DNA of 64,000 nt from Bacteroidales bacterium. Its GTDB lineage: Bacteria; Bacteroidota; Bacteroidia; Bacteroidales; WCHB1-69. Below, piece by piece: positions 10,177 through 28,377 of this stretch. Position 1 is the stretch's first letter, and every line of letters starts with the position of its first letter. The position numbers were made by a program, and so were the translations under genes. Below the pieces are notes generated by a model. The model saw only the letters and a list, made by a program, of their open reading frames with translations, was not told the DNA's origin and did no database searches. The stretch is taken from assembly GCA_024400755.1 (NCBI GenBank), contig JAKSMG010000006.1, positions 17,361-81,360 of the forward strand, read 5' to 3'.

Positions 10177-11547
10177 ATGGCCTTTGATAATCGTGATAAT
10201 ATTGATTTTGGCAAGGAAAATATTCCCAAACTTTTCCGAAGTATCTTTATTCCTACTGTTTTGGGAATGCTTTTCAATGCCGTTTTTGTGTTAACCGACG
10301 GTGTCTTTATTGGGCATGGAGTTGGGGCGGCGGGCTTGGCCAGCGTCAACCTGGTGGCCCCGATTATGATGATTATCACCGGCTTGGGCATGATGTTCGG
10401 CTCGGGTTGCGCGGTGGTGGCGGCCATTCAACTGGCACAGTCGAAAGTCAAGGTGGCGAGAATCAATATCACGCAGTCGTTTATTGCCTGCCTGCTGTTG
10501 TCGTTGCTGTTGGTGCTGTTTTTCTATACTTGTCCGCAGTTGGTGTTTCGCATCTTGGGAGTCAGCGACAGTCTTCACGAATTGGCGATGGATTATTATT
10601 TATGGTTTTTACCCACTTGCGTGTTTTTGATGATACAGATTTGGGGAGAATTTGTCATTCGTTTGGACGGTTCGCCGCGTTATGTGATGTGTGCCAACAT
10701 CATTCCCGCGGTCATCAATATCATATTGGACTACACGTTTATCTTTCCTTGCAATTTAGGACTGAAGGGAGCGGCCTTGGCCACCGACATTGGTTGCGGC
10801 GTAGGTGCGGTGATGACTTTATTCTATATGTTTTTCCTGCGTAAGCAGTTGTCGTTTTATCCGCTTAAAATGACAAGGACAAGCAACCGTTTGGCGGTGC
10901 GTAACATTGGCTATATGATCAGATTAGGTTTTGCCGCCTTTTTGAGCGAATTGGCCATTTCGGTTATGATGTTGGCGGGCAATATCGCTTTTGCCAAGCA
11001 ATTGGGCGATGCCGGTGTTGCCGCGTACAGTGTGATTTGCTATCTGTTTCCGGTAGTCAATATGATATACATAGCCGTGGCACAATCTGCCCAGCCCATT
11101 ATCAGTTTCAATTACGGAGCGAAGCAGGAAAAGCGGGTGCACGACGCCTTTCGTTACAGTTTGATTGTGAGTTTGCTGATAGGTGCCTTGGCGACTTTGA
11201 TTTTCTTCCTTTTCACTTCAAGTATGGTGTCGGCATTCATAGAATCGACGGATCGGGCTCATATTTTGGCTGTGGGCGGTTTGCCGTGGTATTCCCTTAG
11301 TTTTGTGTTTATCGCGTTTAATGTCGCTGCTATCGGCTATTTTCAGTCTGTAGAAAAAATCACGATGGCCTCGTTGATGATGACCTTGCGTGGAATAGTG
11401 CTTCCGGTTGTGGCGTTTTTATTCTTGCCAATGATCATAGGTGAAATGGGATTATGGTTGGCGATACCGATGGCAGAAATGTTCACGACAATGGTAGAAC
11501 TTATATATTTTGTATTTTTGCGGCGAGAAATTGCTAAAAATGAGTGA
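10177..11547 (+). CDS. MATE family multidrug efflux transporter
   Basis: About 455-aa polytopic membrane protein with the MATE-type N-terminus (IPKLFRSIFIPTVLGMLFNAVFVLTDGVFIGHGVG). The ATG at 10177 is preferred over the TTG at 10156. Confidence 0.85.
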   Translation: MAFDNRDNIDFGKENIPKLFRSIFIPTVLGMLFNAVFVLTDGVFIGHGVGAAGLASVNLVAPIMMIITGLGMMFGSGCAVVAAIQLAQSKVKVARINITQSFIACLLLSLLLVLFFYTCPQLVFRILGVSDSLHELAMDYYLWFLPTCVFLMIQIWGEFVIRLDGSPRYVMCANIIPAVINIILDYTFIFPCNLGLKGAALATDIGCGVGAVMTLFYMFFLRKQLSFYPLKMTRTSNRLAVRNIGYMIRLGFAAFLSELAISVMMLAGNIAFAKQLGDAGVAAYSVICYLFPVVNMIYIAVAQSAQPIISFNYGAKQEKRVHDAFRYSLIVSLLIGALATLIFFLFTSSMVSAFIESTDRAHILAVGGLPWYSLSFVFIAFNVAAIGYFQSVEKITMASLMMTLRGIVLPVVAFLFLPMIIGEMGLWLAIPMAEMFTTMVELIYFVFLRREIAKNE

Positions 11548-12043
11548 CAAGATGACACTTGAGCAGCGGCGACGCTGTATGCAGGCGAATAAAAGTAAAA
11601 ACACCTCTATTGAGATATTATTGGGGCGTGCGTTGTGGGCACGTGGATTGCGATATCGCAAGCACTGTAAGGATGTGCCGGGTCGTCCCGACTTTTGTTT
11701 CAAGGGCAAAAGGCTTGCTGTCTTTTGTGACGGCGAGTTTTGGCATGGTCGCGACTGGGAGCAGAACAAGCAGCGTATTCACAGCCATCGGGAATTTTGG
11801 TACGACAAGATAGAGCGCAACCAGCGGCGGGATATGGCCGTGAACCAGCAGTTGCGGAGTGCGGGGTGGCAGGTGTTGCGTTTTTGGGAGACGGACATCC
11901 GCAAGCACTTGGATTCCTGTGTGCAGATGGTGGAGGCGGCTCTCAACGGTGCATCCGTACCCGACAGGGTGTTTTACGAGTACATCGAAACTTCCAATTT
12001 GTTGGTTGCCGAAGCCGAGATGGTGTACGGGAAAAAGGAGTAA
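11540..12043 (+). CDS. vsr: very-short-patch repair endonuclease
   Basis: TSIEILLGRALWARGLRYRK...PGRPDFCF...AVFCDGEFWHGRDW matches the Vsr catalytic core. The start overlaps the MATE stop (ATGAGTGA). Confidence 0.85.
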   Translation: MSDKMTLEQRRRCMQANKSKNTSIEILLGRALWARGLRYRKHCKDVPGRPDFCFKGKRLAVFCDGEFWHGRDWEQNKQRIHSHREFWYDKIERNQRRDMAVNQQLRSAGWQVLRFWETDIRKHLDSCVQMVEAALNGASVPDRVFYEYIETSNLLVAEAEMVYGKKE

Positions 12044-12172: not shown

Positions 12173-12520
12173 ATGGAAGTGTCATTTAATGGTGACAAAG
12201 TTTTGTGCGTAAAGATAGACAACACCTTAAATAACAAAGATGTAAAGCATTTAGAAAGGCGTGAAAACATCTACGAATGTACAAGGAAATATTGGCATGT
12301 CAACAAAGAACGCGCCGAAAAAGCCGACTATGTGATGGGCATTGCCAATGGAATTGTACAAGTGGTTTACATTCCTCGAAAGTGGATACTAACAGCCAAC
12401 CCCAGATTTGCAGGACGCTATGAATTTGAAGGTGAAGAGGTGAAAGATTCTTCGTATATTGGAATGAATGTAGCGCAGCTTGTGAAAGGACAAAGCCCAA
12501 TTCGATATTTTAATATGTAA
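12173..12520 (+). CDS. hypothetical small protein (115 aa), first AT-rich gene of the island
   Basis: Intact ORF with its own promoter motif and a downstream terminator. I recognise no family for it. Confidence 0.5.
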   Translation: MEVSFNGDKVLCVKIDNTLNNKDVKHLERRENIYECTRKYWHVNKERAEKADYVMGIANGIVQVVYIPRKWILTANPRFAGRYEFEGEEVKDSSYIGMNVAQLVKGQSPIRYFNM

Positions 12521-12773: not shown

Positions 12774-12807
12774 ATCTTCCGTGCAATACTTTTTATGTGT
12801 GCACTAT

Positions 12808-12835
12808 AGTCCGTTGTTATTTTTTGCAACGGACT
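12808..12835 (+). promoter_or_regulatory. C-box-like palindromic operator candidate upstream of the controller gene
   Basis: Perfect 9-bp inverted repeat AGTCCGTTG-N10-CAACGGACT, 22 nt upstream of the ATG at 12858. The T-rich spacer resembles a -7 element. Confidence 0.4.
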
Positions 12836-12857
12836 GTAATTTTGTTAGTTTCCTTTT

Positions 12858-13094
12858 ATGAAGAGAAAAATGACTATGAATCTACTAAAAAATATTGGTA
12901 ATGAGATAATTAGCTTGCGAAAATCAAAAGGTCTATCGCAGGAAAAGTTGGCATTGAATGCCAACATTGACCGCCGCTATATGAGCGACATAGAAAACGG
13001 CCGCCGCAACATTTCCGTGGAGATGCTTTCCAAAATTGCGAAGGCCCTGGAAACTACTGGAAGTGAAATTTTGAAGGTGGCGGAAAAGGAATAG
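12858..13094 (+). CDS. XRE-family HTH protein, R-M controller (C-protein)-like
   Basis: 78 aa with an HTH_3 core: SLRKSKGLSQEKLALNANIDRRYMSDIENGRRNISVEMLSKIAKAL. It lies immediately upstream of an m5C methyltransferase. Confidence 0.75.
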   Translation: MKRKMTMNLLKNIGNEIISLRKSKGLSQEKLALNANIDRRYMSDIENGRRNISVEMLSKIAKALETTGSEILKVAEKE

Positions 13095-13103
13095 GAGGGG
13101 AGT

Positions 13104-14171
13104 ATGGTAAAGAGGAAATATACATCTTTAGACATTTTTGCAGGAGCTGGAGGCTTGAGCTTAGGAGCCTTACAAGCAGGCATAGATGTGTCAATCGCAG
13201 TTGAGATGGATAAATTCGCAGCTGAAACATATAAGTATAATCATCCCAATGCCCGAGTGCTATGCGATAACATTAGCAATATTTCAACAGAAACATTAAA
13301 GAAGAATTCTTTTTTCATTATTATGGGAGGACCGCCTTGCCAGGGATTTTCTTTGTCAAATACAAGAAGTCGTAATTTAGACAATCCTAAGAATTTCCTT
13401 TTTAAAGAGTTTGTTCGTTTCGTTAAAGATCTTCAGCCGAAATGGTTCCTTTTTGAGAATGTTGGCGGATTCCCTTTGTTTGAAAAAGGGCTGATTAGAG
13501 ATGAGGTTAAAAAGTCTTTTGAAGATCTCGGATATTCTGTCGCAGATTCTGTGTTATGGGCTTCTGATTATGGAGTTCCACAAAATAGAAATAGATTCTT
13601 CATGGTGGGGAACAATCAGGGAATAAATTTTGAATTCCCCCAACCATTTGATTATAAGGTTACTGTTGAAGAAGCTTTAGGAGACCTTCCTTTGCTTGAA
13701 AATGGCGATATGATAGAGCGTGCCGCCTATAGGGAAACGTTAAATCAAGCCAGCCATTATGCTAAACAAATGAGGATTGGCTCGGAAAACGCAACTCAAA
13801 ATTATGTTTCAAAAAATGCTGATTATGTGATTGAAAGGTACAAGTATATCCCTCAAGGTGGGAATTGGAGATCAATTCCGAATGAATTGATGGAAAACTA
13901 TGCAGACAAATCAAGATGCCATAGCGGAATATATCGTAGATTATGTGCTGACAAACCTTCAGTGGTAATCTCTAACTATCGAAAAAGCATGTTGATCCAT
14001 CCTTTTCAGAATAGAGGATTGTCTGTTCGAGAAGCTGCAAGACTTCAATCTTTCCCAGATACATTCATATTCAAAGGTTCGCTTATGCATATTCAACAAC
14101 AAATAGGTAATGCCGTCCCACCATTGTTGGCAAAAGCCGTCTTCGATAAAATTTTGAGCTATGAAGAATAA
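13104..14171 (+). CDS. DNA (cytosine-5)-methyltransferase (island MTase 1)
   Basis: Motifs I FAGAGG, IV GGPPCQGFS, VI ENV, VIII QNRNRFF and X GNAVPP. Confidence 0.92.
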   Translation: MVKRKYTSLDIFAGAGGLSLGALQAGIDVSIAVEMDKFAAETYKYNHPNARVLCDNISNISTETLKKNSFFIIMGGPPCQGFSLSNTRSRNLDNPKNFLFKEFVRFVKDLQPKWFLFENVGGFPLFEKGLIRDEVKKSFEDLGYSVADSVLWASDYGVPQNRNRFFMVGNNQGINFEFPQPFDYKVTVEEALGDLPLLENGDMIERAAYRETLNQASHYAKQMRIGSENATQNYVSKNADYVIERYKYIPQGGNWRSIPNELMENYADKSRCHSGIYRRLCADKPSVVISNYRKSMLIHPFQNRGLSVREAARLQSFPDTFIFKGSLMHIQQQIGNAVPPLLAKAVFDKILSYEE

Positions 14172-16308
14172 CAGTGAGAATATGCACTTCAAATTTGATG
14201 TCAGTACCTTCCGTCTTTTGGGACGGGAACTTATTACTGATAGGGTTACGGCATTATTCGAGTTGGTGAAGAACTGTTATGATGCCAATGCTGAGAATGT
14301 TGTCATCACATTTGAAAATGTCAATCCGATTTCAACAAATAGTAGAATCATCATTGAAGATGATGGAATAGGAATGTCTTACGAGGACATCCGCGACAAA
14401 TGGATGGTAATTGGGACAAGCAGCAAAAGAAGAAATAAAACTTCTCCATCGCCGTATAACAGAGCGGTTGTGGGTAAAAAAGGTGTTGGACGATTTGCTG
14501 TTGATAAATTAGGTTCCTGCTTAATTATGCGAACCAAAAAACTTGGTTCTAATGAGCTTCAATGTCTTGAAGTGGATTGGAGCAGGTATTCTGCAGAAGA
14601 AAGTAATCAGCTGAGTCTTGATTTTGAAGATTTTAATGAACAAAATCATCCTATGTTTACGGATATGGATAATCGGCATTGGATTGAGAACGGCATTGAG
14701 ACTCAGCATGGGACGATATTGGAAATATCTCAACTAAATGATATTTGGACTGAAAATGATATTCGTCGCGCTTACAAAGAATTGTCCAAATTAGTCAGAC
14801 CGACATTGGACATCAAATACCCTTTCAATATAAAAATAAGAGCATCTCAATATCAAGATTATCAAGATAAAAAAGTTGTCAGCAGTGCCCTGAATAAAGC
14901 TACATTGAACTATCATCTTTCTTTTCGGTATGATGAGATAACTAAAAAATATTTTCAAGAATACTTGAAAGAAGAGAAAGGGAACCTTGTCGTTAAAGAA
15001 AAAGAAGCAGAGATTTTCGGTCCCATAGCATTGTCTTTATATTACTATGATAAGAATGCTAAAAGAAATTTTGCAAAAGGAGATAGAATTGATGGGGTGA
15101 AAATATATCGAGATGGAATTATTGCAACCCCGTTCGCTGAATATAAAGAAGATAGAGATGAACAAAAAGATTTATTTGGGATAGATAAACGCCGTTGGTC
15201 TGGATTTTTTGAAAAACTAAGTACGAGAGATTTGCTTGGATGGATTGACATTTCTGAAGAATTGAATCCAAAAATCATAGACTCTACTAATCGGCAGGAT
15301 TTTGTTGATAATGGGGAATGGACGGCACTTAAGTCTTTTGTGATTAATCAAGTACATCAGATTGAGTTGCTATTGAAGCATCAAAAATCTCAGCAGAAAT
15401 CAGAAAATCATGAAAAACTGAAACAAGCAACAGAAGATGTTTCATCAATCAAAGCTAAAATTGAAAAGGTGAAAAAAAGTTCTGCTCTGCTCTCTCCTGA
15501 TGTTGAAAAGGATTTGGATGATATTACTTCAAAACTTGATACTATCAAATTGGCAGTTGACAGTTCTGCAGAGGATTTGACGCAAATGGAACAGAGCCAA
15601 AAGGCACAGGAAAATTTGTTTTTCAGTTTGGTGTCTCTGCAATCTTATGCAGCTCAAATGTCTCATATTTTCCGTACGTCAATTGGATACATAAAACGCT
15701 CTGCTGAATTTGTGGCCAAATGGGTGCCTATAGGAGAGAAACAGGATAAAGTGGTGAAACATGCCAAAATTGTTTTTGAAGACACCAATAATTTGTCTAA
15801 AGCAATGGACTTTATGTTGAGTTATGCTGAAGATGAATCGACTTTTGAATATTTTGACATCCGTCAGGCCGTTTACGAAATCTTTGATGAGCGTTATTCA
15901 TATTTGTTTGAAGAGGAATCCATTAAAGTTGAGCGAATTGTTGAAGATGATTTTGAATTGCTATACAATAAAAAAGCATTCCAGGATATGTTTGGAAATC
16001 TGATTGACAATTCTGCTAAAGCATTAAGAAATGTCAATGACAAAAGAATCAAGTGTAGCGCATCGCGTGAAAAAGATTCACTGGTAATAATGTTTTCAGA
16101 TAATGGCTGTGGCATTCCTAAGGAAAACTGGGATAAGATATTTGATGTGTTCTTTACAACAACCGCCGATTTTGGAGGTGCTGGGTTAGGACTATATATC
16201 ATAAAATCAAGATTGGAATCCATCAAAGGTTCTATTTCCTTGGAAGATAATGAATTCCTTCCCAACGGAGCCACATTTAAAATAACAATACCTTTAAAGC
16301 ATGAATAA
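14161..16308 (+). CDS. cytoplasmic histidine kinase with an extra N-terminal MORC/Hsp90-like GHKL ATPase domain
   Basis: N-terminal GHKL motifs are ELVKNCYDANA, IIEDDGIGMS and GKKGVGRFA. A coiled-coil-like middle region follows. The H-box is MSHIFRTSIGY (His502). The C-terminal CA domain has NLIDNSAKAL, SDNGCGI, FDVFFTT and GGAGLGLY. No TM segments are present. Confidence 0.75.
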   Translation: MKNNSENMHFKFDVSTFRLLGRELITDRVTALFELVKNCYDANAENVVITFENVNPISTNSRIIIEDDGIGMSYEDIRDKWMVIGTSSKRRNKTSPSPYNRAVVGKKGVGRFAVDKLGSCLIMRTKKLGSNELQCLEVDWSRYSAEESNQLSLDFEDFNEQNHPMFTDMDNRHWIENGIETQHGTILEISQLNDIWTENDIRRAYKELSKLVRPTLDIKYPFNIKIRASQYQDYQDKKVVSSALNKATLNYHLSFRYDEITKKYFQEYLKEEKGNLVVKEKEAEIFGPIALSLYYYDKNAKRNFAKGDRIDGVKIYRDGIIATPFAEYKEDRDEQKDLFGIDKRRWSGFFEKLSTRDLLGWIDISEELNPKIIDSTNRQDFVDNGEWTALKSFVINQVHQIELLLKHQKSQQKSENHEKLKQATEDVSSIKAKIEKVKKSSALLSPDVEKDLDDITSKLDTIKLAVDSSAEDLTQMEQSQKAQENLFFSLVSLQSYAAQMSHIFRTSIGYIKRSAEFVAKWVPIGEKQDKVVKHAKIVFEDTNNLSKAMDFMLSYAEDESTFEYFDIRQAVYEIFDERYSYLFEEESIKVERIVEDDFELLYNKKAFQDMFGNLIDNSAKALRNVNDKRIKCSASREKDSLVIMFSDNGCGIPKENWDKIFDVFFTTTADFGGAGLGLYIIKSRLESIKGSISLEDNEFLPNGATFKITIPLKHE

Positions 16309-16909
16309 TACAGAGAAAATGGATGTGGAAATCATCTATATTGATGATGTCTTAAGACCGGAAAAAAACGCCTTCCTTGACGATTTGGAAGGAACCATTA
16401 CGGATGCCAAACAGTTTGACAATCCATCGAAAGGACTTGATTACATCAAAGAAAATATCGATAAGAACATTATTGTTATTTTGGATTGGAGATTTGCTAA
16501 TTGTAGCCAGCAGGGAGCCGATATATTGAATTCAATATATGAAATGTCAGCTTTGGTCCCCGTTATTGTTTTTACAGGAGCCAATATTGATGTGACAGCT
16601 GCTTCAAATATGTTTAAAGGACATGCGTTCAGTTGTCTCTCGAAAGATGCGTCAACGCAAGAGATAACGGATGCAATTGAAGATGCATATCTGCGTATTC
16701 AAAACGACATCCGTTCTGTGATGAGCCGATGGATTCAAAACCTGCCATCTGACAAACGGGAAGCTCCGTATATGTCCTACAAGGACAAAACTTATTCCTT
16801 GAATGATCTTCTTGATTCTATTCGCAGACAGGATGAAATAGGCAAAGAATTGACACGGAATATTTTAGGCCTTGCTGCTGAAATGTTTACCAATAATTTG
16901 AAGAAATGA
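16301..16909 (+). CDS. receiver (REC) domain protein with an uncharacterised roughly 70-aa C-terminal tail
   Basis: Receiver landmarks are IYIDDV (acidic pair), VILDWRF (Asp62 acceptor), VFTGA (Thr) and LSKD (Lys). An 8-nt overlap with the kinase gene supports coupling. Confidence 0.65.
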   Translation: MNNTEKMDVEIIYIDDVLRPEKNAFLDDLEGTITDAKQFDNPSKGLDYIKENIDKNIIVILDWRFANCSQQGADILNSIYEMSALVPVIVFTGANIDVTAASNMFKGHAFSCLSKDASTQEITDAIEDAYLRIQNDIRSVMSRWIQNLPSDKREAPYMSYKDKTYSLNDLLDSIRRQDEIGKELTRNILGLAAEMFTNNLKK

Positions 16910-17553
16910 GACTGAATGCTGTGATTATTTGTGACGATTCAGAAAGCAATGATTTGAAACCTTTGTTTTCAAATCTGATGCGTGAAACATCCAATGCTCT
17001 CTGTGCATATAAAGATGCAAACAACATCGATTTGACACTTGAGAATCTTACACACGAGAGAGTTGATGTTCAGTCTCTTTCAGAGCGTCTTTCAAATGTA
17101 AATCAGAATGACTTTTTGTGCTATGTGTATTCGCATGGTGAGTGCGACAAGGTTCAGATGGATGGAGAAACCATTGTATCAACAACGACCAATCAATATT
17201 TGTTCAGCAATGCCTTGATTTATACATTTTCGTGCAGCAATGGTAGCGAGTTGGCAGATGTATTGATAGACAATGGTGCAAAATTATTTGTAGGATACAC
17301 GGATAACGCTTGGTTTACGATAGGTTGCGAAAATGAATATACCGAAAGAATTGCAATGACATTTGTAAATTCGTTTTTGAACGGTAACAATGCACAAAAA
17401 GCATTTGAAGATTTGAAAGAATCGTATAACAATGTGATATTTGACGATTCGTTGAAAGATCCGATATTGAAAGGAAATCTTCGCAAAAATCGAGACTGCT
17501 TGACACTCAAGGGTGATGGAAATTTAAGGATTTCAGATGTGAAACTGAATTAA
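16906..17553 (+). CDS. minimal caspase/gingipain-like (caspase-hemoglobinase fold) protein, putative protease effector
   Basis: Hydrophobic strand then His (LCYVYSHGE, His77) and hydrophobic strand then Cys (LIYTFSCSNG, Cys110), followed by LFVGYTD. This assignment rests on the motif pattern only. Confidence 0.45.
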   Translation: MRLNAVIICDDSESNDLKPLFSNLMRETSNALCAYKDANNIDLTLENLTHERVDVQSLSERLSNVNQNDFLCYVYSHGECDKVQMDGETIVSTTTNQYLFSNALIYTFSCSNGSELADVLIDNGAKLFVGYTDNAWFTIGCENEYTERIAMTFVNSFLNGNNAQKAFEDLKESYNNVIFDDSLKDPILKGNLRKNRDCLTLKGDGNLRISDVKLN

Positions 17554-17566
17554 TTGGAAGAATTTT

Positions 17567-18703
17567 ATGCCAAAGAAAAAACATACATTTATCGATTTGT
17601 TCGCAGGGTGCGGAGGCTTGAGTCTTGGCCTTGAGCAAGCTGGCTTTGCCCCTTGTTTTGTAAATGAAATTGTTGAAACTTTTTGTCAAACATACAAGGA
17701 AAATCATAATTTGTCAGAAGACAGGTATTACGTTGGAGACATTAATGAACTCAATCAAGAAATTGATAAATTTTCGCCATTATTTAAGGACGTCACTCTT
17801 GTATGTGGGGGGCCTCCCTGCCAAGGATTTTCAATGGCAAATCGTCAAAGAGTTATTGATGATCCAAGGAATCAACTGTATAAAGCGTTTCTTCAATTTC
17901 TTAGTAAAGTAAGACCTCAATTTTTCATCATGGAGAATGTAAAAGGCATGATGAATAAAATAGATGAAATAGAACAAAATTACAAAGATTTCTTGGGCGA
18001 TGAATATGCTTTTGCCTATGACGTGTTAAGAGCCCAAGATTTCGGCGTTCCTCAAAATAGAGAACGGTTGATTTTTATTGGGAACAGAGTTGGAGTTAAT
18101 CCAAAAATGATTTTTGAGGAAATCTACAAGCAAAAAAGAATATCCTTTGTGCTGCGCGATGCGTTGATTGGATTGCCTCATTTAGAATCAAAAACCGACA
18201 AAGGTCAGAAAGATATTGAAAATGATCTGTCTGGTTTTACAGTTCGAGATTTTGAGTATATACAAAATGATTTTTACCATTTTATTAATGGGGAAAAAGT
18301 ACTGACTAAATTGTTCAATCATAAGAATAGGTATAATAATCCGAGAGACATTGAAATATATAGGCGTTTGCCCCAAGGCGCAAATTCGCTTCATGAATCT
18401 ATCGTCGACATTATGCCGTACAAAAGCAGAAATGATATATTCAAAGATAAATATTTCAAACTTGATGAAAATCAAATTTGCAAAACTATAACTTCACACA
18501 TGAAGTACGATTGCAATATGTACATTCATCCATGGGAAGCTAGAGGATTAAGTCCTCGTGAGGCAGCTCGAATCCAGACATTTCCAGATGATTTTGTATT
18601 TACTGGAGCACAAAATCAGTGGTATGCGCAAATAGGAAATGCCGTGCCAGTAAAATTAGCAAAGGCAATAGGTGAAGGAATAATGAAATTTATAGAAAAA
18701 TGA
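17567..18703 (+). CDS. DNA (cytosine-5)-methyltransferase (island MTase 2)
   Basis: Motifs FAGCGG, GGPPCQGFS, ENV, QNRERLIF and GNAVPV. Confidence 0.92.
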   Translation: MPKKKHTFIDLFAGCGGLSLGLEQAGFAPCFVNEIVETFCQTYKENHNLSEDRYYVGDINELNQEIDKFSPLFKDVTLVCGGPPCQGFSMANRQRVIDDPRNQLYKAFLQFLSKVRPQFFIMENVKGMMNKIDEIEQNYKDFLGDEYAFAYDVLRAQDFGVPQNRERLIFIGNRVGVNPKMIFEEIYKQKRISFVLRDALIGLPHLESKTDKGQKDIENDLSGFTVRDFEYIQNDFYHFINGEKVLTKLFNHKNRYNNPRDIEIYRRLPQGANSLHESIVDIMPYKSRNDIFKDKYFKLDENQICKTITSHMKYDCNMYIHPWEARGLSPREAARIQTFPDDFVFTGAQNQWYAQIGNAVPVKLAKAIGEGIMKFIEK

Positions 18704-19779
18704 GACATTTAGAGTTATTTGCAGGTATAGGTGGTTTCAGAAGAGCAACGGATTTGCTCACTAAAGATAAAATAATGAATTTTAATTGCGTTGGATATTC
18801 GGAAATTGACAAAAATGCAATTTCTACCTATTGTGCTAATTTCAAGCCTAATAAGGATGAAATACCCATAGGAGATATTGTGACATTTACCGCACACCCG
18901 CAAAATATCCAATCGCTTCCCGATTTTGATTTGCTCACAGGAGGATTTCCGTGCCAGACATTTAGCATGATGGGGAAAATGGCTGGCTTTAATGAGGATA
19001 GAGGACAGATGTTTTTTCGAATCATGGATATTCTTAAATCGAAGCATCCACGTTATGTTTTACTTGAGAATGTCAAAAATCTTGTCAATCATGACAAAGG
19101 GAAAACTTTTTCAAGAATCAAACAAGAATTGGAAGATTTGGGTTATCATGTTTTTCCAAACATATATAATACAGCTGATTTCCATCTTCCTCAAACCCGT
19201 AATCGTCTTGTTGTGTTTGCAACAAAAGATGATTTAGATGAAAAATGGATGAAAAAAGCATTTACTCCAAGCTCTGTAAAAGAAACATTTGATAATGTTT
19301 ATAAAACATTAAGCACAAATCATTATTCTACAGTAATTGACGTTCTTTCTTCTAAGGCTGATAGTAAGTATTTCCTTTCTGAAAGGATCAAACCGACCAT
19401 ACTTGCCGATGGCTCAGCAAACTTCAAGTCAAAATCGGACATTAATATGAATATTGCTCGTCCTTTGACCGCTACAATGCACAAGATGCATCGTGCTTGC
19501 CAGGACAACTATTATAGTCAGGATTTCATTGAATCCCATGGCAAAATCAATCATGTGGAAGATTACACGAAGGAGCAATTGGCACAATTACCTATTAGAA
19601 AACTCACCCCGGAAGAAGCATTTATGTTGCAAGGTTTCCCAAAACAGTTTGCTACAAATGGTCGAAAAGCTGGAGTGTCAGATGGTGCGTTATACAAACA
19701 AGCAGGAAATGCTGTAAGCGTCAATGTTATTTATGCAATACTATATTTTTTGATTACTAATAATTTAATTGTTGAATAA
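18700..19779 (+). CDS. DNA (cytosine-5)-methyltransferase (island MTase 3)
   Basis: Motifs FAGIGG, GGFPCQTFS, ENV, QTRNRLVVF and GNAVSV. It overlaps MTase 2 by ATGA. Confidence 0.9.
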   Translation: MRHLELFAGIGGFRRATDLLTKDKIMNFNCVGYSEIDKNAISTYCANFKPNKDEIPIGDIVTFTAHPQNIQSLPDFDLLTGGFPCQTFSMMGKMAGFNEDRGQMFFRIMDILKSKHPRYVLLENVKNLVNHDKGKTFSRIKQELEDLGYHVFPNIYNTADFHLPQTRNRLVVFATKDDLDEKWMKKAFTPSSVKETFDNVYKTLSTNHYSTVIDVLSSKADSKYFLSERIKPTILADGSANFKSKSDINMNIARPLTATMHKMHRACQDNYYSQDFIESHGKINHVEDYTKEQLAQLPIRKLTPEEAFMLQGFPKQFATNGRKAGVSDGALYKQAGNAVSVNVIYAILYFLITNNLIVE

Positions 19780-19781
19780 TC

Positions 19782-20831
19782 ATGTTTTTTTTCTTCTTTA
19801 ATAACGAAAACAGGATTGGATTTAAGAAACTGACTGGAGCAGATTTGGGAATTTCTGAAACGAGCCATCAATCTCATATTGGTTTATACGAAGGTGTTCT
19901 GGAGTTTTTAGACGATTCTGATGTTGTAAGATCGGCTATGTTAATCTATGGAGACTACTGCAATGTGTTGGATTGTTCGTTCGACAGAATAAAAAATCCA
20001 GATGGTTCTTACAGAAGCCCTAAAATACGAATAGGCCAAGATTCAGACAATTCAGTTGTTTCAAAGATCAGAGGGTTTGCAAGAGAATATCCAAATGACG
20101 ATTGGTATCTGGCTTGGATGGGATTAGAGAGTAAAGAACTGGTGTTTTGGCTTGTCAAAAGTAGTACGACGGACTACGATACTGCAAGGAATTTTTTTCC
20201 GAAAGATAAAATTGTATTACAGGAAGATTCACCGACCTATAATGCTGCAAAAGATTATCTTTTGAATCGAATAAACTTTCTAAGCGTTGATGTCCAAAAG
20301 GATATTGAGGTCAAAAGTTTGATTGGTGATTCGAGGAGAAAATATAAGGTAAGAGACCTCGAAAATGCAGAACGGCAATTCAAGCTGACAGGGAAAGAAG
20401 GTGAAGAGTTGGTTGCACAATTTTTAGAACGAGAGAAATTGGCGAAACGAGTAGAGTCCTTCGTGTGGGAAAACAAATCTTATGAATCTGGATTGCCGTA
20501 TGATTTTATTGTCAATGGAAAAATTTTTGTTGATGTAAAATCTACAAGATTTGATTTTGAACAATTTTTGTTTTATAGCAATCAAGAGATAGATTTTGCC
20601 GCTGCCCAAAACAATTTGACCTACGCTGTATATAGAGTGTTTGATATGAATATGGAGCAAAGAAAATTGTCCATTTGTAATAACTGTCAGCCGTATATGA
20701 AATCTATACAACAGCCGATTGTTGATTTAAAAAATGCCGTAAGAACACAACATGCTCTTATGCAAAGCATAAAATTGGGATTAAAACCATCTATTTGTTT
20801 CAATGAAATAAGCAACCCTATTTTATTATAA
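19782..20831 (+). CDS. putative restriction endonuclease subunit with a C-terminal DUF3883-like PD-(D/E)xK domain
   Basis: The C-terminal pattern GKEGEELVAQFL...LPYDFIV...IFVDVKST...FLFYSNQEIDFA resembles the DUF3883/NO VEIN-C nuclease fold. The N-terminal FKKLTGADLG... region may bind DNA. Confidence 0.5.
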   Translation: MFFFFFNNENRIGFKKLTGADLGISETSHQSHIGLYEGVLEFLDDSDVVRSAMLIYGDYCNVLDCSFDRIKNPDGSYRSPKIRIGQDSDNSVVSKIRGFAREYPNDDWYLAWMGLESKELVFWLVKSSTTDYDTARNFFPKDKIVLQEDSPTYNAAKDYLLNRINFLSVDVQKDIEVKSLIGDSRRKYKVRDLENAERQFKLTGKEGEELVAQFLEREKLAKRVESFVWENKSYESGLPYDFIVNGKIFVDVKSTRFDFEQFLFYSNQEIDFAAAQNNLTYAVYRVFDMNMEQRKLSICNNCQPYMKSIQQPIVDLKNAVRTQHALMQSIKLGLKPSICFNEISNPILL

Positions 20832-20834
20832 ACT

Positions 20835-22820
20835 ATGGAAGAAATAGTCAAACACATAAACGATACCAATGCTAGTTTTCGCACCCCGAATGCTGGTGAT
20901 GCAAAAAATACGGATTTATTTTTGGATAACGAACAATATGACTTATTTAAAGATGAAGGGGAACAAATTACCGTCCGTTATAACAAAGAAAATCTTTCAA
21001 AAGCCATTCTTTTCATAGCGTCCATACTTCCAAGAAAATATGATAATTCTGGAATGCATAAATCTATCACTTATTCTTCGGAATTTGTATATGACCAACT
21101 GGCTTTTCTGGATTATTTCTTCAAAGAAAGTGGTGTTTCTGTAGATAAGAAAACTCAAAAATGGAATGTTCGTAAGAATGTGCCAAAGAAAAATGGAGAA
21201 ATAGATAATCGATTCTATTTTAATGGGCTTCTGGATGATGTTGAATATGTTAATGTCAAAAAAGAGAGGGTTTCCTCGAAATTCACTATACGCAATTATC
21301 TTGCTGGTGGATATTCTGACCTCCACATAAAAAGGGCTAATGATGGCATCTTTGATGTATGGGTGACAAATGTCCAACAACCATATTTTGATGATAAAGA
21401 AGAATTAGAAATTGAGGATAAGTCGTCACATAATAATCTCCCTCTCCAAACCATCTTCTACGGTGCCCCTGGCACAGGGAAATCACACAAGGTGAAGGAA
21501 GTGACAGAGACCCTGCCAAAGAGCGATGTTTTCCGCACTACGTTTCATCCGGATTCTGATTATTCAACTTTTGTGGGTTGTTACAAGCCCAAGATGGTGA
21601 AAGCGCCTATTAGAGATGGCAGCGGACACGAAATAACCTCGGCATGTGAAGATGAGAAGAAGCGCATTGCATACGAGTATGAACCGCAGGCATTCCTGAA
21701 AGCCTACGTCCGTGCCTACGAAACCAACGATCCTGTTTTCCTTGTCATCGAGGAAATCAACCGCGGTAACTGCGCCCAGATTTTCGGCGATATGTTCCAA
21801 TTGCTGGACAGAAATGAAAACGGCGAATCGGATTACGCCATCAAACCCGAAACGGCCATCCAGGAATTTCTCAACGAAAAGCTGGAAGATTGTGACATTG
21901 CGGATGAAACCATCAAATCGGGAGAAGAGATGCGTCTGCCTGCAAACCTCCATATCTGGGCTACGATGAACACCTCCGACCAAAGCCTGTTCCCGATAGA
22001 CTCCGCCTTCAAGAGAAGATGGGATTGGAAATATATGCCAATCGACACACGAAAAGAATCATGGGGCATCAAGGTAAACGGGACTGAGTACAGTTGGAGC
22101 AGTTTCTTGGAGAAAATCAACGAGGAGATAGGTTCTATTACTAATAGTGAAGACAAAAAACTCGGCTTTTATTTCTGTAAAGCAGAAAATGGCATCATCA
22201 GTGCTGAGAAGTTTGTGAGCAAAGTGCTGTTCTATATCTATAATGATGTGTTCAAGGATTACGGCTTTGAAAGCAGCAAGAACAAAGATCTTTTCAAAGA
22301 TGGTGACAACAAGCTGGCTTTCGGGACATTCTATTCTGATAATGGGAATATTCGAGAAGAAAAGGTTGATCTGTTTTTGAAGAATCTTGGAGTAGAAGAT
22401 GCCAAAAGAAACAACATGATTTCCAATGATGAAGAAGATGAGGACGGGAATAGCTCAACCACCGAAAGCTCAAGTCGTAACTACGATAAATTCTCCATCA
22501 ATGGTTCTGGTAGATATGCAAAAAATAATCTTGCAGCAGAATGTGTGAAGAAGTATATCGAACTAAACTCCGATATCACTGTTGAAGAAGTTCTTCATAA
22601 TTGGAGTGATTTCAAGAACTTAGTACCTCATTTCATGGAATCAAAAGACGAGTTTGATGCTAGGACAGATAACAGCAAACGTTCTCATGAAATTCCGTGT
22701 AATGGATCAGTATTGTACGTGGCACACAATGGCTATGGTAGCAATGGCAAGGCTCAAATATTGATGGACAGCGTGAATCAAAAAGGCTGGGGATTGACAA
22801 TCGAAAGACATAATGCATAA
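20835..22820 (+). CDS. McrB-like AAA+ (GTPase-type) restriction subunit
   Basis: Walker A FYGAPGTGKSH. The McrB signature FLVIEEINRGNCAQIFGDMFQLLDR and HIWATMNTSDQSLFPIDSAFKRRW are both present. N- and C-terminal domains are uncharacterised. Confidence 0.85.
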   Translation: MEEIVKHINDTNASFRTPNAGDAKNTDLFLDNEQYDLFKDEGEQITVRYNKENLSKAILFIASILPRKYDNSGMHKSITYSSEFVYDQLAFLDYFFKESGVSVDKKTQKWNVRKNVPKKNGEIDNRFYFNGLLDDVEYVNVKKERVSSKFTIRNYLAGGYSDLHIKRANDGIFDVWVTNVQQPYFDDKEELEIEDKSSHNNLPLQTIFYGAPGTGKSHKVKEVTETLPKSDVFRTTFHPDSDYSTFVGCYKPKMVKAPIRDGSGHEITSACEDEKKRIAYEYEPQAFLKAYVRAYETNDPVFLVIEEINRGNCAQIFGDMFQLLDRNENGESDYAIKPETAIQEFLNEKLEDCDIADETIKSGEEMRLPANLHIWATMNTSDQSLFPIDSAFKRRWDWKYMPIDTRKESWGIKVNGTEYSWSSFLEKINEEIGSITNSEDKKLGFYFCKAENGIISAEKFVSKVLFYIYNDVFKDYGFESSKNKDLFKDGDNKLAFGTFYSDNGNIREEKVDLFLKNLGVEDAKRNNMISNDEEDEDGNSSTTESSSRNYDKFSINGSGRYAKNNLAAECVKKYIELNSDITVEEVLHNWSDFKNLVPHFMESKDEFDARTDNSKRSHEIPCNGSVLYVAHNGYGSNGKAQILMDSVNQKGWGLTIERHNA

Positions 22821-22842
22821 GAATTAGCATTGAAGAATAAAT

Positions 22843-24423
22843 ATGGCATTTCACATCAACATAGAAGACCTGTTGAACGGCAAGGCGGTGGAAAACAATC
22901 GCCTTGACTATAAAGAAGGATGGAATCCCGATGCCATCTATCGTACCATCTGTGCCTTTGCCAATGATTTTGAAGATACCGGCGGTGGCTACATTGTGGT
23001 GGGCGTGAAGGAAGAAAACGGTCGTGCCGTGCGTCCGGTGATGGGTGTTAATCCGCAGCAGATTGAGACAATTGAGAAGGAAATGGTGGGTTACAACAAC
23101 CTCATACAGCCATACTATCAGCCGCGGTTGTTTATTGAGGAAGCCGACGGCAAAAACATCCTCATCATCAAGGTTATTGCTGGCGAACGCCGCCCTTACA
23201 AAGTGCCTGATTTTATTACAGCCAAGCAGAAAAACTGGAATTACTATATCCGCTATAATAGCAGCTGCATCGTTCCCAAGAACGAGTACGAGGAAGAGTT
23301 GCGAGGGCTTGCCAACCGCGTGCCGTTCGATGATCGTGGCAATGCTGACATCAAGATAACCGATATTTCAACCTCTATTTTACGTGACCATCTCGTGTCG
23401 GTGAAGAGTGCCCTTGCTAACGAGGACATGAGCGGCGAGCGTCTGTGGACAATACTTGATCAAATGGACTTAACGGAACAGACACCCGACGGACCTGTCA
23501 TCCGCAATGTGGCAGCCATGATGTTCTCTGAGCATCCCGACAAGTTCTTCAAGTACTCTCAAGTGGAGATTGTCATCTTTCCTGAAGGACGTGAGCACAA
23601 TCCAAACAACATGATTGAGTTGCCCGTCATCAAAGGACCTGTGCCCTACATGATACGCGACACAATGAATGCCCTGAAGGTGAACGTCATCCGCAAGAGC
23701 ATCCGCAAACAGAAGTTCGACGAGCATTCCATACCCACCTATAATTACCCTTATCAGGCATTAGAGGAGGCGGTGGTCAACTCGCTCTATCATCGCGATT
23801 ATCAAGATCGCGAACCCGTAGAGATAACCATGGAACCAAACAAGATCAGCATTCTTAGTTTTTCCGGCCCTAACCACACCATTAGCATGGATGCCATCCA
23901 TGAGGCCAAACTTCTCCGTTCGCGCAGATATCGTAATCGCCGCTTGGGAGAGTTCCTTAAGGAACTTGATTTGACGGAGGGTCGAAGTACGGGCATTCCT
24001 ACCATTCAAGAAGAACTTGCCAACAATGGTTCACCAGCCGCCACCATAGAAACCGATGACGCTCGCTCGTATTTCATTATTGACATCCCGTGCCATAAAG
24101 ACTTTGTGGGTGATGTTTTGGTGCTGAATGAAGGAGAAAATGCCATAAAGGATGTTGCGAAAAAATTAACTGACAGACAAATGGTTATCTATGAAATCAT
24201 AGCACATGGCACATTGGATGAAACCATAAATGTCCCTGTAAATGTCCCTGTAAATGTCCCTGTAAATGTCCCTGTAAATATTTCTATAAATGTAACAACC
24301 CTTGCATCGTGGCTTATGGTGACGGAGAAGACCATTAAACGCGACCTTTCTGCTATGCAAGCTGCGGGTGTTATCAAGCGAGTAGGTAGCGATAAGACAG
24401 GTTATTGGGAAGTAATTCAATAA
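22843..24423 (+). CDS. AlbA_2 (Schlafen-like) / HATPase_c_4 / wHTH protein (RecG-like putative DNA-binding family)
   Basis: N-terminal RLDYKEGWNP...ICAFANDFEDTGGGYIVVGV. Central VNSLYHRDYQ...RNRRLGEFLKELDLTEGRSTGIPTI. A C-terminal winged-helix domain follows. Confidence 0.75.
   Translation: MAFHINIEDLLNGKAVENNRLDYKEGWNPDAIYRTICAFANDFEDTGGGYIVVGVKEENGRAVRPVMGVNPQQIETIEKEMVGYNNLIQPYYQPRLFIEEADGKNILIIKVIAGERRPYKVPDFITAKQKNWNYYIRYNSSCIVPKNEYEEELRGLANRVPFDDRGNADIKITDISTSILRDHLVSVKSALANEDMSGERLWTILDQMDLTEQTPDGPVIRNVAAMMFSEHPDKFFKYSQVEIVIFPEGREHNPNNMIELPVIKGPVPYMIRDTMNALKVNVIRKSIRKQKFDEHSIPTYNYPYQALEEAVVNSLYHRDYQDREPVEITMEPNKISILSFSGPNHTISMDAIHEAKLLRSRRYRNRRLGEFLKELDLTEGRSTGIPTIQEELANNGSPAATIETDDARSYFIIDIPCHKDFVGDVLVLNEGENAIKDVAKKLTDRQMVIYEIIAHGTLDETINVPVNVPVNVPVNVPVNISINVTTLASWLMVTEKTIKRDLSAMQAAGVIKRVGSDKTGYWEVIQ
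24227..24295 (+). repeat. in-frame 12-bp tandem repeat (TAAATGTCCCTG x4 perfect plus 2 degenerate)
   Basis: Read directly from the sequence. It encodes (VNVP)4 followed by NISINV inside the C-terminal wHTH region of the AlbA_2 protein. Confidence 0.9.
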
Positions 24424-24433
24424 AAAGACAACT

Positions 24434-27330: not shown

Positions 27331-27384
27331 GACCAGTCTAGCGCATGTTTTTAGAAGAATATCAATAAAAACAAAATTGTGATT

Positions 27385-28377
27385 ATGGACAATGATATTG
27401 TAATTTATCAATCTGAGGATGGTCAAACCAAGATCGACGTAAGGTTTGAGAATGAAACCGTTTGGCTCACGCAGCAACAGATGGCCGAACTCTTTCAAAC
27501 TTCAAGAACTAATGTGGTGGAACATATCCAACATATTTATGAAGAAGGTGAGCTAGAGCAAAGTTCAACCTGTCGGAATTTCCGACAGGTTCGTCAGGAA
27601 GGGAACCGTAGAGTGGAACGTGATATGGTTGCCTATAATTTGGATATGATTATTTCTCTGGGATACCGAGTAAAATCCATTATTGCAACACATTTCAGAC
27701 GCTGGGCAACTGAGCACCTCAAAGAATATCTTGTGAAAGGTTTTACGATGGATGATGAGCGGCTGAAGAACATTGGTGGCGGCGGTTACTGGAAAGAACT
27801 GTTGGACCGTATTCGCGACATCCGCTCTTCTGAAAAAGTCCTATATCGACAAGTGCTTGATTTATATGCTACCAGTGTGGATTATAATCCCCATAGCAGT
27901 ACTTCGATAGAATTCTTCAAAATTGTACAAAATAAGTTGCATTATGCCGCACATGGACATACCGCAGCAGAAGTTATTTACAAACGTGCCGATGCCCAAA
28001 AACCATTTATGGGATTGACCTCTTTTGCTGGTGAAATACCAACTAAAAAGGATATTGGAATTGCCAAGAATTATTTGAATGAAAAAGAACTCAAAATACT
28101 GAACAATTTGGTTTCCGGTTACTTTGATTTTGCGGAAATTCAAGCTATTGAGCACAAACCAATGTATATGAGTGACTATATTCTCCAATTGGACAATATT
28201 CTTTCATCAGGAAATAGAAAGTTATTGGTTGATTCTGGATTCGTTAGTCATCAGGAAGCATTAGAAAAAGCTGAAACTGAATATCGCAAATATCAGCAAC
28301 AGACTCTATCGCCTGTTGAAAAAGCATATTTGGAAACCATTAAGCAATTGGCTGAAAAAAGTTTAGACAAAAAATAA
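27385..28377 (+). CDS. RhuM-family protein
   Basis: N-terminus IVIYQSEDGQTKIDVRFENETVWLTQQQMAELFQTSRTNVVEHIQHIYEEGEL is characteristic of the RhuM family. The ATG at 27385 is preferred over the GTG at 27379. Confidence 0.8.
   Translation: MDNDIVIYQSEDGQTKIDVRFENETVWLTQQQMAELFQTSRTNVVEHIQHIYEEGELEQSSTCRNFRQVRQEGNRRVERDMVAYNLDMIISLGYRVKSIIATHFRRWATEHLKEYLVKGFTMDDERLKNIGGGGYWKELLDRIRDIRSSEKVLYRQVLDLYATSVDYNPHSSTSIEFFKIVQNKLHYAAHGHTAAEVIYKRADAQKPFMGLTSFAGEIPTKKDIGIAKNYLNEKELKILNNLVSGYFDFAEIQAIEHKPMYMSDYILQLDNILSSGNRKLLVDSGFVSHQEALEKAETEYRKYQQQTLSPVEKAYLETIKQLAEKSLDKK

Follow-up and report, generated by a model that had tools for sequence, protein, structure and literature searches.

Organization of the cassette

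The stretch of DNA analyzed here (hereafter the window) comprises 64,000 nt from a Bacteroidales bacterium (GTDB lineage WCHB1-69; assembly GCA_024400755.1, contig JAKSMG010000006.1, positions 17,361 to 81,360) and encodes a histidine kinase carrying two GHKL ATPase domains, embedded in a compact cassette of five genes. The cassette genes all lie on the + strand and are tightly packed in the order XRE-type regulator, C5-cytosine DNA methyltransferase (Dcm), kinase, response regulator (RR) with a receiver (REC) domain, and a 215-aa caspase-like protein. The kinase gene (14161-16308, + strand) is an intact open reading frame (ORF) of 715 aa. It is preceded by the genes for a 78-aa XRE/Cro-type helix-turn-helix (HTH) protein (12858..13094, +; Pfam HTH_3, E 2.3e-15), which ends 9 nt before the methylase start codon, and for the 355-aa Dcm (13104..14171, +; PF00145, E 1e-69; TIGR00675 dcm, E 3e-61), and is followed by those for the 202-aa RR (16301..16909, +; PF00072, E 3.4e-7) and the caspase-like protein (16906..17553, +). 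Start and stop codons overlap by 11 nt between Dcm and kinase, by 8 nt between kinase and RR, and by 4 nt (ATGA) between RR and caspase-like gene, and the cassette is translationally coupled. The island in which it lies has a GC content of 0.35-0.38, compared to 0.42-0.45 elsewhere (0.37 for the island against 0.42 for the window).

Approximately 20 nt upstream of the XRE gene lies an inverted repeat (12805..12838, no strand assigned) with a terminator-like match, in which 13-bp arms, TAGTCCGTTG...CAACGGACTG, enclose an 8-nt loop. The palindrome may be an operator of the XRE protein (C-box-like and overlapping the promoter) or the terminator of the upstream gene. It is directly followed by the motif TAATTTTG (~12838-12845), which we take to resemble the Bacteroidetes -7 promoter element; a sigma-70 promoter scan was uninformative, this being a Bacteroidetes genome. 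Judged by its sequence and position, the XRE protein is a candidate C-protein-like controller of the cassette.

Domain architecture of the kinase

A preliminary description of this DNA, made from the sequence, had read the kinase as a single polypeptide with a MORC/MutL/Hsp90-like GHKL domain at the N-terminus and an ordinary DHp-CA histidine kinase (dimerization and histidine phosphotransfer, and catalytic ATP-binding, domains) in the C-terminal ~220 aa, connected by a Lys/Glu/Gln-rich, probably coiled-coil segment and lacking transmembrane (TM) helices. This reading was borne out, with a single deviation at the residue following the phospho-accepting histidine. Pfam kept the two ATPase domains apart, assigning the N-terminal one to HATPase_c_3 (PF13589, aa 30-152, E 8.3e-25) and the C-terminal one to HATPase_c (PF02518, aa 605-713, E 1.1e-25). 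Five regions could be delimited, all encoded on the + strand: a GHKL ATPase domain with a MutL/Hsp90/MORC-type Bergerat fold (aa 1-215, 14161..14805; assigned from PF13589, invariant motifs and structure match), a beta-rich, S5/transducer-like middle domain (aa 216-384, 14806..15312; from the AlphaFold model, Foldseek and invariant residues), a Lys/Glu/Gln/Ser-rich helical linker joining the ATPase module to the DHp domain (aa 385-485, 15313..15615; from model helices and composition), the DHp domain with the H-box SHIFRTSI (aa 486-565, 15616..15855; from alignment to HK853, SrrB and KinB), and the CA domain with N, G1, F and G2 boxes (aa 566-715, 15856..16308; from PF02518 and CA matches in the PDB).

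The three N-terminal motifs quoted in the preliminary description were found at aa 34-44 (ELVKNCYDANA), 64-73 (IIEDDGIGMS) and 105-113 (GKKGVGRFA), and the Bergerat ATP-binding motifs ExxxN, DxGxG and GxxGxG are intact. An alignment of 64 kinases, with relatives at 25-60% identity, showed E34, N38, D41, D67, G69, G71, G105, K107, G108 and G110 to be invariant. The loss of conserved Asn, Asp and Gly residues upon proper alignment, which had been named as an observation that would overturn the reading, was thus not seen. Glu34 is presumably the catalytic glutamate, by analogy with other GHKL ATPases, and putative roles can be assigned to N38 (Mg binding), D67 (adenine binding) and G105-x-K-G-x-G110 (the lid). 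By these sequence criteria, the kinase is predicted to hold two chemically different ATP sites, one in a MutL/MORC-type ATPase and one in the CA domain.

The N-terminal module and helical linker

Residues 1-470 were modelled with AlphaFold from 70 sequences; the model had a pLDDT of 87.9 and contained the GHKL domain, the beta-rich middle domain and two long helices. When compared to the PDB with Foldseek, the model matched SMCHD1 (6mw7), MORC2 including its DNA complex (9cdj), MORC3 (5ix1/6o1e) and MORC4, and further GRP94/Hsp90/TRAP1, the N-terminal domain of MutL (9n2k), the GyrB 43K fragment (4prx) and TopoVI, at E-values of 2.6e-14 to 1.6e-11 and with ~415-590 aligned columns among the matches listed. 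Alignments of this length cover both the GHKL and the S5/transducer domain, and the model thus supports a GHKL + S5/transducer module of the MutL/Hsp90/MORC type rather than of the kinase type. A PDB sequence search with aa 1-400 gave only marginal matches, to PMS1, Hsp90 and MORC2, so it is the structure comparison that identifies the middle domain. Within this domain D337 and R378 are invariant in the relatives; R378 may act as a sensor of the gamma-phosphate, a role suggested by the Lys of MutL/GyrB/MORC and the Arg of Hsp90, and the conserved pattern of Glu34, D337 and R378 fits a GHKL ATPase capable of hydrolysis.

Among named families, the N-terminal domain comes closest in sequence to the GHKL parts of type II restriction enzymes. 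Residues 10-209 match the GHKL part of the BbrUII/HgiDII family (NCBIfam NF050001, E 1.3e-20). The match spans profile positions 3-184 of 659 and scores 73.5 bits, where the family cutoff is 550, which places the kinase outside the family as defined. Besides the REase_II models of PADLOC, which also match the N-terminal domain, this sub-threshold match is the sole sequence tie to a named restriction-modification (R-M) enzyme family. True MORCs are set apart from paraMORCs by a MORC-specific signature motif, and we label the module paraMORC-like rather than MORC.

The linker composition (aa 385-490: K 14%, L 12%, S 12%, E 9%, Q 9%) and the model helices (aa 385-440 and 446-469) agree with the Lys/Glu/Gln-rich segment described earlier, and a coiled coil or helical hairpin is probable. 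The usual Kyte-Doolittle threshold for TM helices is ~1.6; the best 19-residue window of the kinase reaches 1.28, so no TM helix is expected. The preliminary description had further proposed that the N-terminal GHKL module is a DNA-facing sensor gating autophosphorylation. A sensor role is in keeping with the MutL/Hsp90/MORC type of the module, its place at the input end of the kinase, the helices leading to the DHp domain and the position of the gene directly downstream of a C5-methylase gene, which it overlaps by 11 nt; the module may face DNA or read its methylation.

Three proteins of ~1160-1210 aa (P0177, P0191 and P0232) share a coiled-coil-DHp-CA half with the kinase (35-37% identity to aa 421-714) and carry at their N-terminus a sacsin-type (SACS, Hsp90-like) domain, not HATPase_c_3, representing a second GHKL-like input type.

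The kinase core and its response regulator

Residues 495-711 of the kinase align with SrrB (6paj), HK853 (2c2a/3dge), KinB (3d36) and WalK/YycG (3sl2) at E-values of 2e-10 to 1e-8. His502 (nt 15664-15666) aligns with the phospho-accepting histidine of these solved kinases and is kept in 62 of the 64 aligned sequences. The boxes of the CA domain are complete (N 613-621, G1 647-653, F 660-667, G2 672-679), with N617, G649, G675 and G677 invariant and N613, D647, G651 and G673 conserved in at least 90% of the alignment. By box and residue criteria the protein would thus be a HisKA-type two-component kinase with a cognate REC protein, except at the position following His502, which is occupied by Ile503.

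The RR encoded downstream scored marginally against PF00072 (30.9 bits, threshold 30.2), and its profile matched only REC domains in the PDB (3jte, at 7.6e-12). It contains the acidic pair D15/D16, the acceptor D62 (nt 16484-16486), T92 and K115, with D16 and D62 invariant. No match among solved structures was obtained for the conserved, helical extension of ~65 aa (aa 135-202) that follows the REC domain at the C-terminus, and Pfam, NCBIfam and PDB profile searches revealed no HTH or other DNA-binding domain in the protein. The extension is common to the homologue encoded on a Stenotrophomonas plasmid (hhalign E 1.6e-6, 184 columns). An RR from one HNH-type locus (see below) has the REC part in common with the window RR and not the extension, and in the sample examined the extension was confined to caspase-linked loci.

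The caspase-like partner

The 215-aa protein had no family match in Pfam, NCBIfam or PADLOC. Its AlphaFold model (pLDDT 93.1) was most similar by Foldseek to the CHAT domain of SAVED-CHAT (8tl0, E 3e-6), with further matches to caspase-7, -3 and -8, gingipain R (1cvr) and a C11 peptidase (6mzo). A putative catalytic dyad is formed by His77-Gly78 (nt 17134-17139) and Cys110 (nt 17233-17235), which follow successive core strands as in caspases, and none of H77, G78 and C110 varies among 49 close and four distant homologues. The family profile produced weak matches to the large subunits of caspase-6 and -8, aligned on the SHG motif, and one homologue carries PF01364 (Peptidase_C25). The model thus indicates a clan CD, caspase/CHAT/gingipain-like peptidase fold, from which proteolytic activity and a role as the effector of the cassette are predicted. 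The possibility that the protein is a Vsr or another nuclease was ruled out by the caspase-like fold and the lack of matches in the three libraries.

Compared to SAVED-CHAT, known from type III CRISPR/CBASS, the protein shares the His-Gly/Cys dyad after equivalent strands. It is, in contrast, a minimal stand-alone domain of ~200-215 aa without SAVED, TPR or any other sensor, and is predicted to be controlled by a His-Asp phosphorelay instead of a cyclic nucleotide.

Conservation of the cassette

The kinase belongs to a large family, with 678 clusters (50% identity) recovered at E-values up to 1e-30, many of them full length. A search of genome contigs with the kinase alone returned a single true relative, from Bacteroidales UBA1756, and the census of loci was therefore drawn from metagenome contigs. 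It comprised 80 metagenome loci carrying the motif EL[VI]KN[SAC]YD, scored with hidden Markov models from the kinase, RR and caspase-like alignments as well as with the Dcm, XRE and very-short-patch repair endonuclease (Vsr) of the window. Genes for an RR and a caspase-like protein (each ~200-215 aa) were present in 23/23 loci in which the kinase is at least 35% identical and enough downstream sequence is available; the remaining 11 loci at this identity are cut by contig ends. The same four genes (Dcm, kinase, RR and caspase-like protein) were found at kinase identities of 49%, 38% and 36% (loci L012, L013 and L016). Where upstream sequence is available, the gene immediately preceding the kinase is, with few exceptions, Dcm, and an XRE gene is found upstream in only some loci (L053, L078, L081 and L095). 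The cassette is common in gut and rumen Bacteroidales metagenomes, with relatives on plasmids.

The same cassette was also found on a plasmid of Stenotrophomonas rhizophila, where the kinase is 28% identical and ISHG and ISCG motifs are retained in the fourth protein. Compared to the first caspase-like profile, this 226-aa protein gave an hhalign E-value of only 0.36, with a convincing alignment obtained after distant members had been included; its E-value of 2e-42 against a model derived from alignment A5 is circular and carries no weight, as the protein is itself a row of A5. In another clade, at 26-27% kinase identity, the genes after the kinase encode an RR, a caspase-like protein of greater length (281-291 aa; hhalign E 8e-9) and, last, Dcm.

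This conservation bears on whether the kinase signals at all, the alternative being that it is a decayed GHKL restriction subunit that acquired kinase-like sequence, makes no use of His/Asp chemistry and has as its neighbors unrelated passengers of a defense island. The missing acidic residue after the phospho-accepting histidine and the RR score just above the PF00072 threshold would agree with such a remnant, but His502 is retained in all but two of the aligned kinases, the CA-box residues are invariant or at least 90% conserved, D16 and D62 of the RR are invariant, and the four-gene order is preserved in every informative locus and across phyla. We consider a non-signaling remnant highly improbable.

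The downstream neighbor of the cassette varies by locus, being LlaJI-like, HpaII-like, AbiH, an ABC-type ATPase or absent, which indicates that the cassette travels as a unit. That the cassette merely regulates the LlaJI-like module found downstream in the window was ruled out, since this module is replaced or absent in related loci.

Further out in the family, the gene after the kinase is always REC-like, with an invariant Asp in 38/38 cases, and in 11 of 20 distant loci an HNH nuclease gene follows the REC gene. The gene content shows the effector to be swapped as a module, being caspase-like here and HNH in distant relatives, and suggests that one type of MORC-like sensor kinase, together with its REC partner, serves several kinds of effector.

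Other proteins were found beside family kinases. A second HATPase_c_3 protein lies beside the cassette at four loci (L013, 5185-7062; L010, 5341-7074; L015, 1785-3944; L035, 2-1303); the one in L015 is a full GHKL-kinase beside a helicase, and GHKL proteins may pair in some variants. Next to distant family kinases, L055 (2952-3959) encodes a REC protein fused to a PEP-utilising mobile domain, and L057 (7176-10445) and L060 (4853-8122) encode 1090-aa proteins with Helicase_C.

Kinase matches were found in 119 plasmid records, 41 of which cover at least 80% of the query, including plasmids from Stenotrophomonas, Hymenobacter, Bacillus and cyanobacteria and conjugative Campylobacter plasmids. The latter comprise pCA639-1 of Campylobacter armoricus (L018) and ~40 further plasmid records, encoding full-length kinase relatives (24% identity) with a 340-aa REC partner and an adjacent C5-methylase; some of these kinases are annotated as 'HAMP domain-containing sensor histidine kinase'. 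A search of phage genomes returned near full-length relatives only on two unannotated fecal contigs, with no sign of a typically phage-borne system.

The genes surrounding the kinase also bear on the nature of its input. Rather than DNA, the GHKL + S5 module could report the ATP or other nucleoside triphosphate (NTP) state, or bind a phage protein as an Hsp90-like client, with the methylase protecting against a partner nuclease encoded elsewhere or acting in addiction. NTP sensing has been put forward as a speculation for this architecture (PMC8011034), Hsp90, GRP94 and TRAP1 are structurally as close to the model as the MORCs, the relatives described above combine this coiled-coil-DHp-CA output with an N-terminus of the sacsin type, which is Hsp90-like, and some distant kinase relatives have no adjacent methylase. 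Within the present clade, on the other hand, the kinase gene almost always follows the methylase gene directly and in translational coupling, the closest named sequence relatives of the N-terminal domain belong to restriction enzymes, and MORC2 and SMCHD1 are chromatin- or DNA-associated ATPases, MORC2 having been solved with DNA (9cdj). A non-DNA input is possible, though in our view less likely than not.

Proposed function

We propose that the cassette is a self-contained, horizontally mobile, methylation-linked two-component defense module with a caspase-like effector, a reading to which we assign a probability of roughly 0.5. It builds on what the sequences show: the domains of the four proteins, whose catalytic motifs are all intact, the conserved order and translational coupling of their genes, and the modular exchange of the effector. 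In this model, the GHKL + S5 module would bind and hydrolyze ATP and dimerize like other GHKL clamps, with closure of the clamp tied to an infection cue, most plausibly DNA without the mark of the co-encoded methylase. The conformational change would pass via the helical linker to the DHp domain, allowing the separate C-terminal CA domain to phosphorylate His502, and the phosphoryl group would move on to Asp62 of the small REC protein. The clade-specific C-terminal helical extension of the REC protein would then switch on the 215-aa caspase-like protease, which would cleave host or phage proteins, so that the infection would be aborted or growth arrested. The identity of the signal, the phosphotransfer, the coupling of RR to protease, the proteolysis and the defense phenotype are all predicted steps of this scheme. 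Its most specific version, in which a MORC-like clamp detects unmarked DNA and a His-Asp phosphorelay directly licenses a minimal caspase-like protease through the REC C-terminal helix bundle, is put forward only tentatively.

Several points weigh against the proposed module. His502 is followed by Ile rather than by the Glu/Asp typical of HisKA (Glu is found there in 34 of the 64 aligned kinases), and as the acidic residue, which serves as general base and in the phosphatase motif, is replaced, the phosphorylation chemistry of this kinase may be weak or of another kind. A small DNA-binding domain may have escaped detection in the RR extension, the neighboring genes encode no substrate for the caspase-like protein, and none of the PADLOC models covers the RR or the caspase-like protein. 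DNA binding by the GHKL + S5 module is a prediction, and the earlier description of the architecture favored NTP sensing for the HATPase_c_3 domain (PMC8011034). The lack of matches to the published families PF19191 and PF19192 (see below) also belongs here; judged by sequence, the window proteins would form a sister branch of the same superfamily. Finally, the authors describing the Ambrosia system favor transcriptional control and induction (10.1101/2025.09.30.679545).

This last point leads to an alternative, put forward for Ambrosia and by Bellieny-Rabelo et al. (PMC8011034), in which the kinase senses infection and the phosphorylated RR is a transcription factor that, with the XRE protein, induces the cassette and/or adjacent R-M genes, the caspase-like protein being one induced effector that the RR does not activate directly. 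In Ambrosia, reporters inserted in the cluster were induced on infection and the RR, AbrC, carries a winged HTH (wHTH) domain (10.1101/2025.09.30.679545); in the window, an XRE gene and a palindrome precede the cassette, and a second, LlaJI-like R-M module follows it directly. Set against this, searches of the RR with Pfam, NCBIfam and a PDB profile uncovered no HTH or other DNA-binding domain, the downstream R-M module is variable or absent while the caspase-like gene is constant, XRE genes occur in few related loci, and the overlapping stop and start codons suggest that the four genes are made together and not induced separately. Transcriptional control is, in our view, the less likely explanation.

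For the proposed two-component module with a caspase-like effector, the output in this clade is probably proteolysis; the cassette encodes no nuclease. If true, two-component defense as represented by Detocs and Ambrosia would gain a protease arm, and the cassette would be a nuclease-free, R-M-like abortive-infection system providing the first two-component link to caspase-type proteolysis. It would also offer a tractable bacterial model for how a MORC/SMCHD1-type ATPase turns DNA or epigenetic state into an output, in a small soluble system where sensing by prokaryotic MORC-like ATPases and the readout of clamp closure meet a simple phosphorylation assay.

Genomic surroundings

To the left of the cassette, at the edge of the low-GC island, lies the gene for a Vsr (11510-12043, +; PF03852, E 1e-29), which has a TTG start and overlaps the end of a MatE transporter gene. 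Vsr is a usual companion of C5-methylases. In the census, vsr genes recurred near related kinases, as they do in the family published in 2021 (PMC8011034). A 115-aa ORF between the Vsr and XRE genes (12173-12520) had no family match.

A LlaJI-like restriction module (17567-26674) is situated directly downstream of the cassette, on the + strand, and encodes two C5-methylases (Dcm; 17567-18703 and 18700-19779), a NOV_C/DUF3883 protein (19782-20831), a McrB-like AAA_5 protein (20835-22820) and a RE_LlaJI-like protein (24434-26674), the latter with a weak RE_LlaJI match (E 2.4e-4). Related loci have a simpler version of the module (one Dcm, AAA_5 and a 718-aa protein) or carry Dcm and RE_HpaII in its place. 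Between the McrB-like and LlaJI-R2-like genes lies a gene for a 526-aa Schlafen/AlbA_2 protein with HATPase_c_4 and a DeoR-like HTH (22843-24423), which has a local GC content of 0.44-0.46 and thus looks like a separate insertion. It weakly matched the pAgo-associated models of PADLOC and contains a perfect 12-nt tandem repeat, TAAATGTCCCTG, in 4.4 copies (24227-24279), which encodes (VNVP)n and is possibly slippage-prone. Just past the restriction genes, at 27379-28377, a RhuM-family virulence/phage-related protein is encoded (E 1.9e-108), consistent with a mobile-element or defense-island setting.

Comparison with known systems

Prokaryotic MORCs and paraMORCs were defined as GHKL + S5 ATPases of R-M operons by Iyer, Abhiman & Aravind in 2008 (PMC2292703). 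The kinase shares with the paraMORCs and the BbrUII/HgiDII enzymes an N-terminal GHKL domain with intact ATP motifs, an S5-like domain, and a genomic association with C5-methylase and Vsr genes. Where paraMORCs have a nuclease, TIR or other extension at the C-terminus, the kinase has coiled-coil-DHp-CA, and the cassette encodes no nuclease. Judged by the family cutoff, the kinase is not a BbrUII/HgiDII enzyme.

The combination of both GHKL domains in one soluble kinase was described computationally by Bellieny-Rabelo, Pretorius & Moleleki (2021, Genome Biol Evol 13:evab024; PMC8011034), starting from a Pectobacterium protein with PF02518 and PF13589. These authors defined the DHp-like HEF_HK (PF19191) and its partner Response_reg_2 (PF19192), found HATPase_c_3 + HEF_HK + HATPase_c in 174 of 222 sequences and linkage to an RR-like gene in 91.6%, and reported upstream C5-methylases, Vsr and HNH_2 as common nucleases, and several unannotated neighbor groups. 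In their proposal, HATPase_c_3 serves as sensor in a soluble kinase that arose from paraMORCs. The headline observation of the preliminary description is therefore right and its sensor idea reasonable, but both were published in 2021, so that the window kinase adds a member rather than a concept.

The resemblance to the 2021 family extends from the soluble HATPase_c_3, DHp-like (with conserved His) and HATPase_c architecture to the adjacent small RR-like gene, the C5-methylase directly upstream, the nearby Vsr and the R-M-rich setting, with two more Dcm genes and the LlaJI-like module downstream. The published models were nevertheless not matched. For PF19191, whose presence in the searched library is unconfirmed, no match was obtained at E-values up to 10 with the window kinase. 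Its scanned relatives, which number more than 85 and include 63 from the alignment and 12 additional family members, gave no match either. The window RR, with its weak PF00072 match, did not match PF19192, whereas the RR partners of the 2021 family are Response_reg_2 proteins; as PF19192 is present in the library and yet matched only one of the 38 RRs adjoining distant kinase relatives, the published models appear narrow. The two also differ in that His is followed by Glu/Asp in the 2021 family and His502 by Ile in the window kinase, and in that no caspase-like partner was identified in the 2021 paper. Among the papers searched, none was found that links this kinase family to a caspase-like protein.

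Ambrosia, described in a 2025 preprint (bioRxiv 10.1101/2025.09.30.679545), was shown experimentally to protect Pseudomonas aeruginosa from phage and consists of AbrR (XRE), AbrA (N6-methylase), AbrB (histidine-kinase/Hsp90-like HATPase), AbrC (REC-wHTH) and AbrD (HNH). Defense is lost upon the RR mutation D60A and in mutants of every predicted domain. Compared by gene layout, the window cassette has the same five-gene order of XRE, methylase, HATPase/kinase, REC and effector, and distant relatives of the window kinase have REC and HNH downstream, as in Ambrosia. The systems differ in the methylase (N6 compared to C5, PF00145), the effector (a type IV-like HNH compared to a caspase-like protein), the wHTH domain (for which no counterpart was detected in the window RR) and the host lineage (Gammaproteobacteria compared to Bacteroidales). 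The cassette is thus not Ambrosia in the strict sense.

In Detocs (Rousset et al., bioRxiv 10.1101/2023.01.24.525353), which comprises the kinase DtcA, the buffer REC protein DtcB and the REC-PNP protein DtcC, a two-component pair activates a toxic effector post-translationally, and the effectors are swappable. This provides a precedent for two-component control of an effector, and the likeness lies in two-component phosphotransfer as an anti-phage switch, a function that in the window is predicted from the genes. In contrast, the Detocs kinase has a TPR-type input without GHKL or S5, its effector is fused to REC, and no methylase is present; a PADLOC scan of the kinase, the RR and the 215-aa protein matched no Detocs model. 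Viewed against these systems, the cassette appears to represent a variant of the two-component anti-phage systems that has not been described before, and the locus is best described as a caspase-linked variant of the methylase-associated GHKL-kinase/REC module. Its new part is the conserved cassette, in which the downstream REC and caspase-like partners, on which the preliminary description is silent, make the locus distinctive.

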